Positions 19,127 through 62,535 of a DNA stretch of 64,000 nt are shown here, piece after piece. The notes below the pieces were generated by a model. That model saw only the letters and a program-made list of their open reading frames with translations, did no database searches and was not told the DNA's origin. The position numbers were made by a program, and so were the translations under genes. Source of the DNA: Bacteroidetes bacterium 37-13. Lineage in GTDB: Bacteria > Bacteroidota > Bacteroidia > Chitinophagales > LD1. Position 1 is the first letter of the stretch; every line of letters begins with the position of its first letter. The stretch is from assembly GCA_001897535.1 (NCBI GenBank), contig MKTC01000021.1:24532-88531 (forward strand), given 5' to 3'.

Positions 19127-19939
19127 ATGCAAGCAACACCAAAAGATTATTTGAATTGGAGTTTTGATGATATCGTTTTCGATAATAGAAATAAAGATTA
19201 CGGTGCCTATCAACTTAGAAAAGTACAGCCTAAAAACTCTCGCACAGGGCTTATATTGGCTGTCGTATTTTTCACCGGATTTATTTTCTTAAGTCAGGTA
19301 GATTGGTCGTTTCTTAAATCGAATAGCCAAGAGGAACAAGTAGTTGAAACCGTGGTAACGCTTTCGGAGCCGCCACCATTAGATGAAAAAGCTCCACCAC
19401 CACCTCCTCCGCCACCACCGCCACCACCGCAGCGTCCAACAGTTCGTTTCGTGGAAATGATTGTGAAGAAACAAGAAGAAGTGCGCCAGCAAGAAGATGA
19501 GCCGGTAAAAATTGAAGATATAAAAGAAGCTGAAATTTCAACCAAAACTCAAGAAGGTGATGCAAATGCAGAACCAACAATTAACGAGCCGGTTGTAATT
19601 GATGCACCGGTTGTAAAAGAGCCTGAAATCTTCACTATTGTAGAGCAACAACCGGAATTTCCGGGCGGAGAGCAGTCGCTTTACAAATACCTTCGCGATA
19701 ATATTCAATATCCGAATATGGAGCGCGACAACGATATTCAAGGTAAAGTAATTGTAGCATTCGTTGTTTGGGACGATGGTAGTATTCGCAACGTGGAAGT
19801 AAAAAAAGGCGTTAGTCCGGGTTTAGATAAAGAAGCTAAGCGTGTGATAGAAAAAATGCCAAAGTGGAAAGCAGGAAAGCAGCAAGGTAAAGCTGTTCCA
19901 TGCCGCTACGTTATTCCGGTAGTATTTAGATTACAATAG
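19127..19939 (+). CDS. tonB: Energy transducer TonB
   Basis: TM anchor, then a poly-Pro linker (PPPPPPPPPPPPQRP), then the C-terminal TonB domain EQQPEFPGGEQSLYKYLRDNIQYP...GKVIVAFVV. Confidence 0.9.
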   Translation: MQATPKDYLNWSFDDIVFDNRNKDYGAYQLRKVQPKNSRTGLILAVVFFTGFIFLSQVDWSFLKSNSQEEQVVETVVTLSEPPPLDEKAPPPPPPPPPPPPQRPTVRFVEMIVKKQEEVRQQEDEPVKIEDIKEAEISTKTQEGDANAEPTINEPVVIDAPVVKEPEIFTIVEQQPEFPGGEQSLYKYLRDNIQYPNMERDNDIQGKVIVAFVVWDDGSIRNVEVKKGVSPGLDKEAKRVIEKMPKWKAGKQQGKAVPCRYVIPVVFRLQ

Positions 19940-27857: not shown

Positions 27858-30800
27858 ATGATTTTAAAACCATTGAAGCCAAGAAAGGCACTGAACAAAG
27901 CCTTTTTAAAAGTAAAACCGAACAGGACTGAAATTGAAGGTTTCAAGACCAATCTCATTACTTTACTCGACCGTACCAATGACACGGAAAGCGAAGAGTT
28001 TCATAAAAACCTGATTTCCGACTTTCTAAAAGATACTTATTACAAACAAAATCATTTCATCAATACCAAAGGTAGAAACGACCTTGTTATTCACAACGGA
28101 CAAAATGCAAACTCGACAGTTGGTGTAATTCTCGAAGCTAAAAAGCCGACCAACAAAACGGAAATGATTACGACCAAAAGACTGAATGTAAAAGCATTTC
28201 AGGAATTGGTTTTGTATTATCTAAGAGAAAGAATTACACATAAAAATCTTGAAGTAAAACATTTGGTGGCGACCAACATTAACGAATGGTTCATTTTTGA
28301 CGCTACCCTATTCGACAGACTTTTTGCTCAAAACAAAAATCTTGTAAAGCAATTCAACGACTTTGAAGGTGGACGATTAGCAGACACCAAAACAGATTTT
28401 TTTTACAAAGAAATTGCCGAGCCGTTTATTGACAGCATCACTTCTGAAATTGAATTTACATACTTCAACATTCAGGACTTTCAAAAACCGTTACGAAATA
28501 CCGACAAAGCAGACGATAATTCGCTGATTGCTTTATTCAAATTGCTTTCGCCAGAGCATCTTTTAAAGCTTCCTTTTACCAACGACAGCAACAATCTTGA
28601 CAAACGCTTTTACAGCGAATTGTTGCACATCATCGGTTTGAACGAAACCAAAGAGGGAAGCAAAAAAATCATCGAGCGGAACAAAGCAGGAGAACGAAAC
28701 ACGGGAACTATTTTGGAAGATGCCATTATCCAGTTGGACAGTTTAGATAAGCTCAACCGATTGGAAAAACCCAGCCAGTTTGGGAATACCAAAGATGAAA
28801 AACTTTTTAATGTTGCCTTGGAACTCTCCATCACTTGGATAAATCGGATTTTATTCCTGAAATTGTTGGAAGCTCAACTCATCAACTATCATAAAGGCGA
28901 TAAATCGTATTCGTTTCTGAATTTTGAAAAAATCAAGAATTATGACGACCTAAACAGTTTGTTTTTTCAGGTATTGGCTCGCAAGTATGACGCGCGAAAC
29001 GAAGATGTAAAAAAGGCTTTTGAAAAAGTACCTTATCTCAATTCATCACTTTTTGAGCCGACCGATATTGAACAAGTTACTTTGTTCATCAGCAACCTGA
29101 AAGACGAAAAGACCATTCCGATTTTTTCGCAAACCGTGTTGAAAGACCAACAGGGCAAAAAACGCACAGGCAACATTTCCACGCTTCAATATTTGTTTGA
29201 GTTTTTAGATGCTTACGACTTTGGAGCAGAAGGCGGAGAAGAAATTCAGGAAGACAATAAAACGCTGATTAACGCTTCGGTTCTCGGTTTGATTTTCGAG
29301 AAAATAAATGGCTACAAAGACGGTTCGTTTTTCACGCCCGGTTTCATCACCATGTATATGTGCCGTGAAACCATTCGCAAAGCCGTTGTGCAGAAATTCA
29401 ACGAAAGCAAAAAATGGAACTGCACAACCCTTGAAGAACTTTACGACAAAATTGAAGACCGAAAAGAAGCCAACCAAATTGTAAACAGCATTAAAATTTG
29501 CGACCCTGCCGTTGGTTCAGGACACTTTTTGGTTTCGGCACTCAATGAAATGATTGCCGTTAAAAACGACTTGAAAATTCTGCAAGACCGTGACGGAAAA
29601 CGCCTGAAAGAATATCAGGTGGAAGTGGTAAATGATGAACTGATTGTAACAGACGAAGAAGGCGAACTTTTTGAATACAACCCAAGCAACAAAGAAAGTC
29701 AACGCATACAGGAAACGCTTTTCCACGAAAAACAAACCATTATTGAAAATTGCCTTTTCGGTGTGGACATCAATTCCAATTCGGTAAAAATTTGCCGTTT
29801 GCGTTTGTGGATTGAGCTTTTGAAAAATGCTTATTACATAAGCTCTCCTCCTTTAAAAGGAGGAGTACCCGAAGGGGGAGGTGGTTTAATCAAAAACCTA
29901 CCCGAAGGGGGAGGTGGTTTTAAATTAAATAATCTACCTTACCTAAAAACTTTCCGTAAGGAATTAAGGAACAACCTAACACCTGCTGAAGCTAAACTTT
30001 GGACATTGCTGAAAGGCAAACAAATGAATGGTCGAAAATTCAGAAGGCAACATAGTGTAGGAAACTATATCTTAGATTTTTACTGCCCATCAGAAAGAAT
30101 AGCCATTGAATTAGATGGGCAAGGACATTTCGAAGTTTCCCAGGCAGAATATGATTATGAAAGAGATTTGTTTTTAGAGGCTTTTGGAATAAGGGTTTTA
30201 AGATTTGAAAATAAATGGGTTTGGAATAATCCTGATGGATTGTTGGAAGAAGTAAAAAGTTATTTTGGAAAGCAACCACCCCGTCCTGCGGACACCCCTC
30301 CTTACAAAGGAGGGGAGCTTCAAACTCTTCCGAACATTGACATCAACATAAAATGCGGTAACTCTTTAGTGAGCCGTTTTGCCATTGATGCCGACCTGAA
30401 ACAAGCCTTGAAAAAAAGCAAGTGGACGATCGACAGCTACCGAATTGCCGTGAACACTTATCGAAATGCTGAAAACAAAGAACAGAAACGAGAAATGGAA
30501 AAGTTGATTCTTGCTATAAAGCAAGATTTTTCAACAGAAATAAGGATGAACGATCCTATAAAAAAGCGATTGGATAAACTGGCAAGCGAACTTTATCACC
30601 GTTTTACAGGTACTTTCTTATTTGAACCGGAAGTGCCATACGGAAAGTCTGAAAAACAGTTACAGAAAGAGCGCCAAAAAGAAAAAGAGAAATTAGAAGA
30701 AGAAATAGAGCAGCTCAACAAAAAAATTGATAAAATAAAAGCCAACAAGATTTTTGAAAATTCCTTTGAATGGCGCTTTGAATTTCCCGAAGTGCTGAAC

Positions 30801-31877
30801 GATGATGGCGATTTTGTGGGCTTTGATGTGGTGATTGGAAATCCGCCATATTTCATAATGACTAAGAACAATATGGAAAAACTTGAGCTAAGTCATTACA
30901 TAAATAATTATCAAGCAGTAAAAAATGCAAGTTCAAAAAACATCTTCAATCTATTCATAGAATTAGGCATAATCATAAGCAATAGAAATTCATTCCACTC
31001 AATGATAGTTCCAGAAGGCTTATTTGAAACAAGAAGCTATTCTGACACAATTGATTTATTAAAAAATGCAGGTGCAGTTTTAAACATCACAAGAATAGAA
31101 GGAATGGTATTCGATGAAGCGAATACAGGGAATGTGATTTACATTTTTGGAAAGAGTAAACAAGGTGCGGAAACAGAACAAAGAATATTCAAGAAAAATC
31201 AAGATTTAGCTGAATATAGTAAAAATGAAGACCCTCTAATTTTAAAAATAGACAATCCAAAAACTCCACGACTCTCAGATTTTTGCCAACTATTTAAAGG
31301 TATGGTTGTCGCAGACAGAAAGACGAAAATATTTGAAAACCAAGCGGAAAATTTACCAAACAAATTTTTACTAGGTAATTGTATATCAAAATGGAACATT
31401 GACAAATGCTTTTACACAGATTATGAATCCTTGTCTATAATTGGTGGAACTAAGGCTAAAGACAAACACGCAGTTTCTCCAAGAATTTTAATTAGAAGAA
31501 CAGGAGATTATTTATGTTGTGCATATCTGATAGAACCTGCATTAACAGAATCAACACTTTATTCTTGTTGGTCATTAAAAGATGAAATACACAATCTTTT
31601 TATTCTTGGTGTATTACACTCAAAAGTTGCAGACTATTTCATTAAAAACAAGTTGGTAACAAATCCACAAGCATTTCCGCAAATTTTAATGACCGATTTA
31701 CAATCATTACCAATCCCAAACCCATCAATTGAAATTCATAATTCAATTAAATCATTAACGGAAGAGAGATTAGAAAACAAGGGCAACAATAAAGTAACTG
31801 AAGCGAAAATAGACCAATTGGTTTACAAACTTTACGACTTGACGGAAGAAGAAATAAAAATAGTGGAAAATGGATAA
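27858..31877 (+). CDS. Type IIG restriction-modification enzyme (nuclease + gamma-class N6-adenine methyltransferase + specificity region), carrying a nested DUF559 module
   Basis: N-terminal PD-ExK-like motif (NDLVI...VGVILEAKKP). MTase motif I is CDPAVGSGHFLV and motif IV is VIGNPPY (nt 30837-30851). The C-terminal part is a long variable region. The architecture resembles Eco57I/MmeI-type single-chain enzymes. Confidence 0.85.
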   Translation: MILKPLKPRKALNKAFLKVKPNRTEIEGFKTNLITLLDRTNDTESEEFHKNLISDFLKDTYYKQNHFINTKGRNDLVIHNGQNANSTVGVILEAKKPTNKTEMITTKRLNVKAFQELVLYYLRERITHKNLEVKHLVATNINEWFIFDATLFDRLFAQNKNLVKQFNDFEGGRLADTKTDFFYKEIAEPFIDSITSEIEFTYFNIQDFQKPLRNTDKADDNSLIALFKLLSPEHLLKLPFTNDSNNLDKRFYSELLHIIGLNETKEGSKKIIERNKAGERNTGTILEDAIIQLDSLDKLNRLEKPSQFGNTKDEKLFNVALELSITWINRILFLKLLEAQLINYHKGDKSYSFLNFEKIKNYDDLNSLFFQVLARKYDARNEDVKKAFEKVPYLNSSLFEPTDIEQVTLFISNLKDEKTIPIFSQTVLKDQQGKKRTGNISTLQYLFEFLDAYDFGAEGGEEIQEDNKTLINASVLGLIFEKINGYKDGSFFTPGFITMYMCRETIRKAVVQKFNESKKWNCTTLEELYDKIEDRKEANQIVNSIKICDPAVGSGHFLVSALNEMIAVKNDLKILQDRDGKRLKEYQVEVVNDELIVTDEEGELFEYNPSNKESQRIQETLFHEKQTIIENCLFGVDINSNSVKICRLRLWIELLKNAYYISSPPLKGGVPEGGGGLIKNLPEGGGGFKLNNLPYLKTFRKELRNNLTPAEAKLWTLLKGKQMNGRKFRRQHSVGNYILDFYCPSERIAIELDGQGHFEVSQAEYDYERDLFLEAFGIRVLRFENKWVWNNPDGLLEEVKSYFGKQPPRPADTPPYKGGELQTLPNIDINIKCGNSLVSRFAIDADLKQALKKSKWTIDSYRIAVNTYRNAENKEQKREMEKLILAIKQDFSTEIRMNDPIKKRLDKLASELYHRFTGTFLFEPEVPYGKSEKQLQKERQKEKEKLEEEIEQLNKKIDKIKANKIFENSFEWRFEFPEVLNDDGDFVGFDVVIGNPPYFIMTKNNMEKLELSHYINNYQAVKNASSKNIFNLFIELGIIISNRNSFHSMIVPEGLFETRSYSDTIDLLKNAGAVLNITRIEGMVFDEANTGNVIYIFGKSKQGAETEQRIFKKNQDLAEYSKNEDPLILKIDNPKTPRLSDFCQLFKGMVVADRKTKIFENQAENLPNKFLLGNCISKWNIDKCFYTDYESLSIIGGTKAKDKHAVSPRILIRRTGDYLCCAYLIEPALTESTLYSCWSLKDEIHNLFILGVLHSKVADYFIKNKLVTNPQAFPQILMTDLQSLPIPNPSIEIHNSIKSLTEERLENKGNNKVTEAKIDQLVYKLYDLTEEEIKIVENG
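29845..29865. repeat. Left boundary palindrome CTCCTCCTTTAAAAGGAGGAG
   Basis: CTCCTCCTTT is the reverse complement of AAAGGAGGAG, with one central base between them. Confidence 0.9.
29866..29920 (+). repeat. 22-bp direct repeat TACCCGAAGGGGGAGGTGGTTT x2 (33-bp period)
   Basis: Copies at 29866-29887 and 29899-29920. They encode (V/L)PEGGGG twice. Confidence 0.9.
30295..30315. repeat. Right boundary palindrome CCCCTCCTTACAAAGGAGGGG
   Basis: CCCCTCCTT pairs with AAGGAGGGG around an ACA loop. It has the same core as the left palindrome. Confidence 0.9.
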
Positions 31878-39180: not shown

Positions 39181-39405
39181 CTATTTCTCTAAAGTGTTTT
39201 TTTGCTTAGTTGCTTTTAAGCGCTTTGCTCCATATAAACCCGCGGCAGCCAATAAAAGTGCTGCACCGCCATCTATTGGAACGCCTGCTGGCGGAGGTCC
39301 GCCTTGTCCTTGTCCGCCACCACCGCCTCCGGGTTGGGCTTCTACTAATGTGGCACTTGCTATAATTACTGCTGCAAAGAGTATTTTTATTGCTATATTT
39401 TTCAT
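39181..39405 (-). CDS. Mini-protein: signal peptide + Gly/Pro linker + exosortase-type (PID-CTERM-like) sorting tail
   Basis: MKNIAIKILFAAVIIASATLVEA | QPGGGGGGQGQGGPPPAGV | PIDGGAALLLAAAGLYGA | KRLKATKQK. This is the motif, TM helix and basic-cluster architecture. Confidence 0.65.
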   Translation of the reverse strand: MKNIAIKILFAAVIIASATLVEAQPGGGGGGQGQGGPPPAGVPIDGGAALLLAAAGLYGAKRLKATKQKNTLEK

Positions 39406-62194: not shown

Positions 62195-62226
62195 AGCGCT
62201 GCTGCTGTCAGATTTTACCTGGTTGC

Positions 62227-62535
62227 TCAGGCGCTTTTTTTTTCAGCCTTTTTAGCAGGAGCTGCTTTTTTAGCTACCGCTTTTTTAGCAGGAGCTGCTT
62301 TTTTAGCAGGAGCTGCTTTTTTAGCTACCGCTTTTTTAGCAGGAGCCGCTTTTTTAGCTACCGCCTTTTTAGCAGGAGCCGCTTTTTTAGCTACCGCCTT
62401 TTTAGCAGGAGCTGCTTTTTTAGCTACCGCTTTTTTAGCAGGAGCTGCTTTTTTAGCTGCTGCCTTTTTAGGCGCTGCTTTTTTTGCAGCTGCTTTTTTA
62501 GGCGCTGCTTTTTTTGCTGTTGGTTTTGTTGCCAT
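62227..62535 (-). CDS. Histone H1-like Ala/Lys/Pro repeat protein
   Basis: 102 aa composed almost entirely of A, K, P and V, with AAPAKKAVAKK repeated. Confidence 0.8.
   Translation of the reverse strand: MATKPTAKKAAPKKAAAKKAAPKKAAAKKAAPAKKAVAKKAAPAKKAVAKKAAPAKKAVAKKAAPAKKAVAKKAAPAKKAAPAKKAVAKKAAPAKKAEKKSA
62254..62469. repeat. 33-bp tandem repeat (about 6 units plus one 18-bp half unit) encoding the H1-like repeats
   Basis: The unit AGCAGGAGCYGCTTTTTTAGCTACCGCYTTTTT starts at 62254, 62305, 62338, 62371, 62404 and 62437. A half unit starts at 62287. Confidence 0.9.

Follow-up and report, generated by a model that had tools for sequence, protein, structure and literature searches.

How a complete nuclease domain came to lie, in frame, inside the methyltransferase domain of a restriction-modification-type enzyme, and whether it belongs to that enzyme at all, is the question raised by a locus of Bacteroidetes bacterium 37-13. 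The DNA analyzed, a stretch of 64 kb (64,000 nucleotides, nt) of contig MKTC01000021.1 referred to here as the window, contains on its plus strand a gene (27858..31877), identified from the list of open reading frames (ORFs) and Pfam, for a single-chain enzyme of restriction-modification (RM) type of 1339 amino acids (aa). Within this gene, a DUF559 nuclease is encoded between two arms of inverted-repeat DNA. We regard it as reasonably probable that nt 29840-30320 are a copy of a widespread family of mobile, non-splicing elements that live as in-frame passengers in other genes. The original prediction for this DNA had offered two readings, a selfish in-frame passenger and a domesticated second nuclease domain, and the former is supported by polymorphic orthologues, by many palindrome-bounded copies and by an intact ORF.

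The nuclease core comprises 115 aa (29928..30272, plus strand, like all features given below) and has the Vsr fold, being PD-(D/E)xK-like, as delimited by Pfam, the match to the structure 3HRL, the invariant residues and an AlphaFold2 (AF2) model. The profile search that had been proposed as a check detects Pfam DUF559 (PF04480) at aa 697-800 with an E-value of 1.7e-30 and 105.5 bits, well above the curated threshold of 20.6, over profile positions 4-105 of 109. The full D...E-x-D...H signature that had been claimed is confirmed in this way, all invariant residues being present: the core contains R, Q, D, E-x-D, H, R and N (the D in ILDF; RRQ; RFEN). Eight residues invariant in the family are kept without exception in 25 of 25 nested copies and in 67 free copies, bar one R-to-V change in a free copy. 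The ratio of nonsynonymous to synonymous substitution (dN/dS) among nested cores is 0.03-0.09, with dS saturated, and the nested nuclease cores are under strong purifying selection. The closest solved relative, PDB 3HRL (95 residues aligned, E 4e-20), is a structural-genomics entry from N. gonorrhoeae titled only "Endonuclease-Like Protein", and the NCBIfam model PRK09767 matches the core with 76.8 bits, under its equivalog cut-off of 218. The literature searched terms YcjD-like/DUF559 proteins putative or predicted nucleases. The true Vsr enzyme (PF03852), a T:G mismatch nickase, was considered and rejected: Pfam lists DUF559 and MTES_1575 for the core, not Vsr, and the host methyltransferase is an N6-adenine enzyme (NPPY), not a Dcm-type C5 partner. 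The DUF559 family as a whole forms 23,763 clusters at 50% identity (exhaustive search, E <= 0.001), and the insert used as a query finds thousands of small DUF559 proteins in many phyla, many of which share its flank peptides. Among phage and plasmid records, 7 phage and 44 plasmid matches to the element were found, all distant at below 60% identity, and it is not typical of phages or plasmids.

Both ends of the insert are formed by terminal inverted repeats. According to the outermost inverted-repeat bases and a comparison with the empty site of locus L001, the whole inserted element runs from AAGCT to AGCTT (29840..30320). Repeat search and the family consensus define its left terminal inverted repeat (29840..29886) as AAGCT, hairpin 1, TA, hairpin 2 and GGAGGTGGTT, and the right one (30274..30320) as AACCACCCC, hairpin 2, A, hairpin 1 and AGCTT; over 47 nt the two are 79% complementary. 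Each arm also contains one AACCACCCC/GGGGTGGTT motif. The twin GGAGG palindromes that the original prediction had placed at the segment ends are the tips of these repeats: left hairpin 1, CTCCTCCTTTAAAAGGAGGAG (29845..29865), is a perfect palindrome with a 10-bp stem and a DNA fold z-score of -3.5, which translates to SPPLKGG, and right hairpin 1, CCCCTCCTTACAAAGGAGGGG (30295..30315), is a perfect palindrome with a 9-bp stem, which translates to TPPYKGG. The corresponding pattern has 4 matches in the window versus 0.03 expected by chance. Left hairpin 2 is CCC-GAA-GGG (29868..29876), a position at which, family-wide, the sequence varies and the stem is kept; right hairpin 2, GTCC-TGC-GGAC (30283..30293), forms part of the right inverted repeat. 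The claimed direct repeat of the left arm was also recovered by repeat search, as a tandem duplication in the subterminal arm (29866..29920) of 22 nt twice with a 33-nt period (copies 29866-29887 and 29899-29920), with a chance expectation of 0; the copy number of this subterminal arm differs among relatives (P0036, P0053, P0055, L006, L009, L023). The GC content of the arms is outlying, at 47% (29844-29927) and 65% (30273-30315); the window as a whole has 38% and the DUF559 core 34%.

The element is free of stop codons, its arms being open in the frame of the host, and the junctions read ...NAYY|ISSPP and KGGE|LQTLP. The segment had been described as 471 nt or exactly 157 codons from position 29845; its coordinates and open frame stand, but 29845 is a codon position 2, and the distance from NAYY to NID (516 nt in the window versus 51 nt in the empty allele) gives a net gain of 155 codons (465 nt). 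Between the left end and the core, no ATG, GTG or TTG stands in frame, the first being TTG 30006 and ATG 30024, both within the core, which agrees with the claimed lack of an ATG and extends it to the other two start codons. Because there is no in-frame start ahead of the core, the nuclease is producible only within the host chain. Two classical kinds of in-gene insert were examined and discarded: there is no Rfam match that would indicate an intron (E <= 1, 29600-30600, both strands) and the insert is open in the host frame, nor is there any Hint or intein Pfam domain or any splice-junction residue that would indicate an intein.

Several lines of evidence show that the segment is an insertion and not an ancestral domain. 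A whole-protein search yielded thousands of homologues, of which the best 120 were aligned with the query (121 sequences). Within this alignment the segment is present in 26 of 121, as ~150-250 extra residues at exactly one point, and the remaining homologues read NAYY-KNAT-ELETLPNID or have a few additional residues there. The relatives nearest by the N-terminal half are empty, namely P0001 (95% over the N-terminal 655 aa) and P0062-P0102 (95-96%), with the site NAYY|KNAT|ELETLPNID, so that the comparison with orthologues advised by the original prediction reveals a polymorphic segment that the closest of them lack. The window allele is itself mosaic: P0015, which occupies the same chromosomal locus in a related strain and has a different specificity domain, matches it at 97% over the N-terminal part and the insert, and the C-terminal 515 aa of the window allele are closest to empty alleles (P0001, 96% in the specificity domain). 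On trees of the host family, the number of changes between the filled and the empty state is 21 against a null of 24 for the N-terminal part and 20 against 24 for the C-terminal (specificity) part, compared with 13 against 24 for the adjacent 250 aa. The state is thus linked only to the adjacent 250 aa, which indicates that the segment moves among recombining alleles and takes its nearest flanks along. Alleles with and without the insert at one site exist in homologous genes of two families, the Type IIG family of the window (NAYY|...|LETLPN) and a Type ISP family (EK|...|FAPID); in the latter, over the part of the query that lies upstream of the insert (70% of it), empty alleles are 91% identical, and filled alleles have the insert at the same loop.

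That the segment could instead be an ancestral domain of the Type IIG family, lost in most lineages, is very improbable. In its favor, the position of the segment is the same in every filled allele and most inserts group in a single clade, but filled and empty states are distributed randomly over the host tree, terminal inverted repeats are present, the nearest relatives of the insert lie in unrelated hosts and stand-alone genes, and divergent nuclease lineages (L034, L047) occupy the same site. Even less credible, to a degree that we consider negligible, is a disrupted pseudogene or an assembly artefact, in favor of which nothing was found: the 1339-aa ORF is intact, a protein identical to its product is present on 13 independent metagenome contigs, a syntenic strain (L003) has the same insert, and dozens of filled alleles are intact.

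The host gene also varies in ways of its own. L003 10001-14194 and window 27858-31877 represent the same locus with the same neighbors, and their N-terminal parts are 97.7% identical and carry the same insert; the C-terminal 500 aa of L003 are unrelated to those of the window, the specificity domains being ~25% identical. The specificity half of the host enzyme is swapped between strains. In L001, the empty allele nearest to the window's gene adjoins a phage-type integrase gene (L001 86-1813), and a 626-aa gene without a Pfam match (L001 5605-7485) lies 3' of the empty allele and overlaps its stop codon. The window locus has neither the integrase nor the 626-aa gene, which suggests that the host gene is itself carried from one setting to another.

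If the segment is a passenger, its ends should be found elsewhere, and they are. Ninety-eight loci were gathered, all close to the window copy, through a genome scan with the single protein, which gave 10 loci, and an alignment-based metagenome scan, and palindromes of the CCCCTCC...GGAGGGG type were sought within 260-300 nt of the core. A left palindrome is found at 84 of the 98 loci, a right one at 82 and both at 69, so that the search for further palindrome-bounded DUF559 copies, which had been advised at the outset, has yielded many. The family elements measure ~0.5 kb and consist of ~45-55-nt terminal inverted repeats and a single DUF559 gene of ~115 aa. Their arms share one plan which, reading outwards, is AACCACCCC, a variable hairpin 2, A, hairpin 1 (CCCCTCCTT-loop-AAGGAGGGG), AG(C/T)T(T)n and a T-rich stretch. 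Across the family, hairpin 2 comprises 55 distinct sequences with 42 distinct stems, the mean perfect stem being 4.7 bp versus 2.6 bp in shuffled sequence. Since left and right hairpin 2 differ within an element (CCC/GGG versus GTCC/GGAC in the window), the pairing takes place within an arm and not between arms. The hairpin 1 loops of one element are usually exact reverse complements, sometimes direct copies. In the window, L007, L011 and L017, what flanks the hairpins is an inverted pair of short sequences (AAGCT/AGCTT, AAACT/AGTTT) and not a direct one. Arms are frequently multiplied in tandem (L006, L009, L023, L051), the 22-nt repeat of the window being a small case. The same ends flank free-standing intergenic genes located between ordinary metabolic genes, in L014 (a 540-kb marine contig) and L017, where the stop codon of the ORF stands ahead of the right arm, and they also flank a proteobacterial copy with 40% protein identity (L013).

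The conservation of the arms is that of DNA. Between the window and L025, which lies in another host gene, 39 of 43 and 40 of 42 arm nucleotides are identical where the third codon positions of the core are identical at 39%; the left terminal repeat shares 40 of 42 nt with that of L009, with core third positions at 46%. Overall, arms have 91-98% nt identity where core third positions have 39-60%. In addition, the arms are read in differing frames among copies, as SPPLKGGVPEGGGG, SSSPNIGEVSEGRRG or SSPEKGRWPKAGGV. The double-hairpin architecture is conserved and selected at the DNA level; frame changes combined with nucleotide conservation would be expected of a DNA (or RNA) structure that needs only to stay open, and not of a protein linker.

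Near relatives of the element are present in unrelated genes and in intergenic DNA, and miniature derivatives made only of arms exist. At L067 (2870-3200), two tandem units of ~150 bp, each with a left arm, ~55 nt and a right arm, share a hairpin and lie 2.4 kb from a full DUF559 element; they resemble MITEs (miniature transposable elements with inverted repeats). Solo arms stand in frame at other places in the same host genes at L025, L030 (in the loop equivalent to the window site), L033 and L084, and distant solo-arm or arm-only hits amount to 10 in 418 kb of loci. Some of the alleles counted as empty (L020, L021, L022) have a single G/C-rich hairpin at the loop of the window family (NAYY...LETLPN), which resembles the left arm in L020 and has a 12-bp stem in L022, and L105 (P0078) has at the same loop an unrelated perfect 20-nt palindrome, AGACAGGGCATGCCCTGTCT. 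These loop palindromes could reflect a hot spot for hairpin inserts or independent small insertions, or could be excision footprints.

Such derivatives admit another explanation, in which the arms would be a palindromic element like MITEs or repetitive extragenic palindromic (REP) sequences, moved in trans, and the DUF559 gene would be cargo or a repeat-associated gene with a different role, for example in repair or regulation, comparable to RAYT genes between flanking REPs. The existence of arm-only units and solo arms, the unrelated palindromes at the same loop (L105, L022) and the terminator-like character of the ends, a GC hairpin followed by a T-run, all fit this idea, and we know of no transposon that relies on a Vsr-fold nuclease alone. 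We nevertheless judge it quite unlikely, as the association of arm and nuclease has been kept from Bacteroidota to Proteobacteria, at 40% protein identity, and arm classes co-vary with nuclease lineages. Moreover, no recurring candidate partner gene was found beside the elements in the loci inspected, and no solo hairpins are dispersed within the window.

The passenger reading is further informed by the proteins in which copies are nested. About one quarter of the loci have frames that stay open over hundreds of codons to the left and right of the core. The hosts include the Type IIG family of the window, other Eco57I-type enzymes (in the loop that joins motif X to motif I), Type ISP enzymes, whose Type_ISP_C domain is interrupted by the insert, HsdS, HsdM, an N6_N4 methylase and, outside RM systems, IcmF-type methylmalonyl-CoA mutase (L051, L064). 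Further nesting outside RM systems, with the same kind of arms, is found in IleRS, in HPPK of folate synthesis and in PP2C/SpoIIE, within a TPR-SpoIIE protein (P0383, P0374, P0282). Among 27 long proteins drawn from the 150 closest representatives, Pfam detects Methylase_S (HsdS) in 9, Eco57I in 5, Type_ISP_C in 4 and N6_Mtase in 4, with some overlap. Judged by nearest-neighbor identities, cores cross between hosts: that of L026, in the loop between motifs X and I of a Type IIG enzyme, is 90% identical to that of L031, in the specificity domain of a Type ISP enzyme, and that of L028 (HsdS) is 87% identical to that of L027 (Type IIG).

More unusual arrangements were also observed. In one Eco57I-type (Type IIG) enzyme two DUF559 domains are nested, and a protein of 377 aa is made up of three tandem DUF559 domains (P0272/P0257). 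In P0012, a member of the window's Type IIG family, another DUF559 subfamily is nested at aa ~545-700 between motifs X and I; its flank peptides differ (PSPSPSGRGVGGEG..., SFGRGDRGEGDG), and the usual site is empty there.

It is against this range of hosts that domestication has to be weighed, that is, the idea that DUF559 serves RM enzymes as a second nuclease or nickase, was spread by domain shuffling and has kept its arms as linkers. It is supported by the composition of the sample, at least 18 of the 27 long representatives and 25 of the 27 nested loci being RM proteins, although the sample was ranked by similarity to a copy that itself lies in an RM gene. This bias is real in the sample; it could stem from the tolerance shown by long modular proteins, from their frequent horizontal exchange or from an advantage for the host. 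The low dN/dS with intact catalytic residues, the production of the nuclease only as part of the host chain and the fact that inserts at the window's site are mostly one clade would also suit an accessory domain. On the other hand, IleRS, HPPK, IcmF and PP2C offer no obvious role for a nuclease, and nesting in them argues against a restriction-specific function as a general explanation. In addition, near-identical alleles do without the insert, the same ends surround intergenic stand-alone genes and arm-only units, and the arms, which are conserved as DNA, differ in frame and vary in copy number, do not evolve like a protein linker. Domestication is on this balance unlikely; of the form proposed originally, the restriction-specific part is argued against by the nesting outside RM systems, and a benefit to RM hosts is retained as a candidate.

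How a host enzyme might tolerate the passenger is suggested by the predicted structure. An AF2 model of aa 472-1339 has a mean predicted local distance difference test score (pLDDT) of 73.7, with both arms below 50 (protein aa 653-704 and 807-842); the core folds on its own as an alpha/beta domain, which lies between helix 169-187 and strand 358-360 (model numbering). The insertion point lies at the end of the motif-II helix of the methyltransferase domain (...LWIELLKNAYY), which is followed by the strand DINIK; the host strand and motif NIKCGNSL, assigned from sequence and from AF2 secondary structure, lies directly 3' of the insertion loop (30345..30368). The structure prediction that had been called for thus places the insert in a loop with disordered arms, and the arms are modelled as Gly/Pro/Ser-rich disordered linkers. 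Since the arms are translated into disordered linkers, the nuclease would hang from a loop and the host frame stays intact.

The host enzyme itself has the Pfam order DUF7149 (aa 6-243), DUF7814 (aa 244-471), MmeI_Mtase/Eco57I (aa 530-1071) and TaqI_C (aa 1170-1286). Taken alone, the Eco57I match extends over aa 631-1071 and the DUF559 match falls within it, in agreement with the Eco57I-type methyltransferase that had been read on both sides of the segment. The methyltransferase is of the gamma class of N6-adenine enzymes and TaqI_C is the specificity domain. Motif I, CDPAVGSGHFLV, lies at 29499..29534 and motif IV, GNPPY, at 30837..30851, both where they had been placed in the 1339-aa ORF; FFTPGF (motif X), CDPAVGSGHF (I), GNPPY (IV) and the TaqI-like specificity domain all stand on one chain. 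NCBIfam gives weak PglX-like matches, and Foldseek with the C-terminal 868 aa matches CamA, M.BseCI, M.TaqI and PglX. In the N-terminal 470 aa, Pfam detects only DUF7149 and DUF7814 and no nuclease family. By its domain architecture alone, the host would be a Type IIG-like, Eco57I/MmeI-like enzyme.

With regard to the mechanism, we infer that the element is, or recently was, mobile. The original wording that it "transposes or homes" is upheld as far as insertion polymorphism and occurrence at unrelated sites are concerned, and the movement itself remains a deduction from them. In the scheme that we favor, the DUF559 nuclease would act on the hairpin ends of its own element by introducing nicks into hairpins that are extruded or single-stranded, which is the weakest part of the scheme. 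Nicking would start copy-in or excision, and repair synthesis or recombination might complete the movement. In addition, recombination with the flanks would spread the element between alleles of a mosaic gene family.

A number of observations weigh against this view of a mobile passenger. No target-site duplication was found at eight independent junctions, and the element encodes no transposase of the DDE, HUH, serine or tyrosine type according to Pfam, its sole ORF being DUF559. To our knowledge, no DUF559 protein acts on hairpins, and we know of no homing activity of DUF559 proteins themselves. The window has one copy of the element only, with no other DUF559 copy and no solo hairpin. No clean pair of filled and empty alleles with identical flanks was found in the Type IIG (L001, L002) or the Type ISP family, and filled alleles have their own set of flank markers in common (I...ELQTL and FVPEK...CFAP); the loop thus differs between filled and empty alleles, so that the exact borders rest on the inverted repeats. 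Apart from the two divergent lineages already mentioned, the inserts at the window's site are one clade, and one old acquisition followed by recombination would explain much of their distribution. Finally, the strong purifying selection and the heavy bias towards RM hosts would fit a host function too.

A wider proposition can be put forward tentatively, as a possibility that we would not yet back. DUF559 genes with double-hairpin ends might constitute a new class of autonomous selfish element, in which a Vsr-fold nuclease of ~115 aa would be the sole mobility protein, acting on its own hairpin termini, and of which one lineage would have specialized in in-frame life, mainly in RM enzymes, as an "intein that never splices". 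If true, there would be a biological context for DUF559, a family of ~24,000 clusters at 50% identity that is usually annotated "very-short-patch-repair endonuclease", and the bacterial elements that enter genes and leave them functional would gain a protein-coding member. Should the nuclease be what drives mobility, its chemistry of transposition or homing would be one that the known transposase classes do not include. There are practical consequences as well. Insert-bearing RM enzymes, IleRS, HPPK and other proteins are named "DUF559 domain-containing protein" or "very-short-patch-repair endonuclease" in annotation, and the insertion loops show where Type IIG, Type ISP and HsdS proteins can accommodate a domain of 150 aa, knowledge that is of use in protein engineering.

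Two repeats elsewhere in the window deserve a mention. At 62200-62532 there are long repeats with 15/18-nt periodicity (AGCTGCTTTTTTAGC...), of which the minus strand would encode a Lys/Ala-rich repeat protein. At 19381-19443, CCACCACCNCC is repeated with a period of 9 nt, rich in Pro or in Gly according to the strand, and a weaker copy lies at 39295-39330.

The element is best appreciated by comparison with known systems. Like inteins with a nested homing endonuclease, it is inserted in frame, places a nuclease in the host polypeptide, has occupied and empty alleles and uses the same site in homologues. Unlike inteins, it has no Hint domain and no Cys/Ser/Thr...His-Asn junctions, must remain in the mature protein and is bounded by inverted repeats, which inteins do not have at their termini. 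Inteins splice out and Rickettsia palindromic elements (RPEs) and MITEs are tolerated as an extra peptide, whereas the DUF559 element stays in the protein. RPEs and in-frame bacterial MITEs are short palindromic mobile inserts that keep the frame, add a surface peptide and leave the host protein usable (PMC1779305, PMC10969869, PMC2229807). The solo arms and arm-only units of DUF559 elements are similar to them, but RPEs and MITEs have no protein of their own, and the DUF559 element has double-hairpin ends and carries a nuclease under purifying selection that joins the host protein. PARCELs likewise are palindromic DNA translated within proteins, with a horizontal distribution, and have no enzyme domain and no such terminal repeats (PMC2996958).

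With respect to the nuclease, Vsr, DUF559 and DUF2726 form one clade (PMC3424549), and the Vsr-like or EDxHD homing endonucleases (I-Bth0305I; the "fractured genes" family) place the same superfamily in a selfish element (PMC2677866, PMC3239194). These differ in being intron-encoded or free-standing between split-intein halves, in being larger, with extra DNA-binding parts, and in having no hairpin repeats. Stand-alone DUF559 proteins (E. coli YcjD, N. gonorrhoeae 3HRL) share the Pfam family and the invariant residues and are annotated as ordinary small genes of unknown function. A "DUF559 domain-containing protein" has been listed, without comment, beside Eco57I-type methylases among targets of programmed inversion (PMC9881135), an entry that may reflect nested copies; in the window, no silent specificity-domain cassettes or programmed inversion were found. 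The literature search found no description of hairpin-ended or nested DUF559 elements, and the family is apparently undescribed.

As regards the ends, the closest parallel is provided by REP/REPIN-RAYT systems and IS200/IS605, in which a small single gene is likewise flanked by hairpins, hairpin-only derivatives exist, no target-site duplication is made, and the structure of the stem is conserved as its sequence varies. Those systems, however, encode an HUH Y1 transposase, which Pfam does not detect in the DUF559 element, and each end of the latter is a true inverted repeat comprising two hairpins; REPs occur scattered through a genome in hundreds of copies, in contrast to the window, with no dispersed solo hairpins in its 64 kb. 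The element thus combines features of in-frame palindromic elements, inteins, Vsr-like homing endonucleases and REP-RAYT systems without belonging to any of the four.

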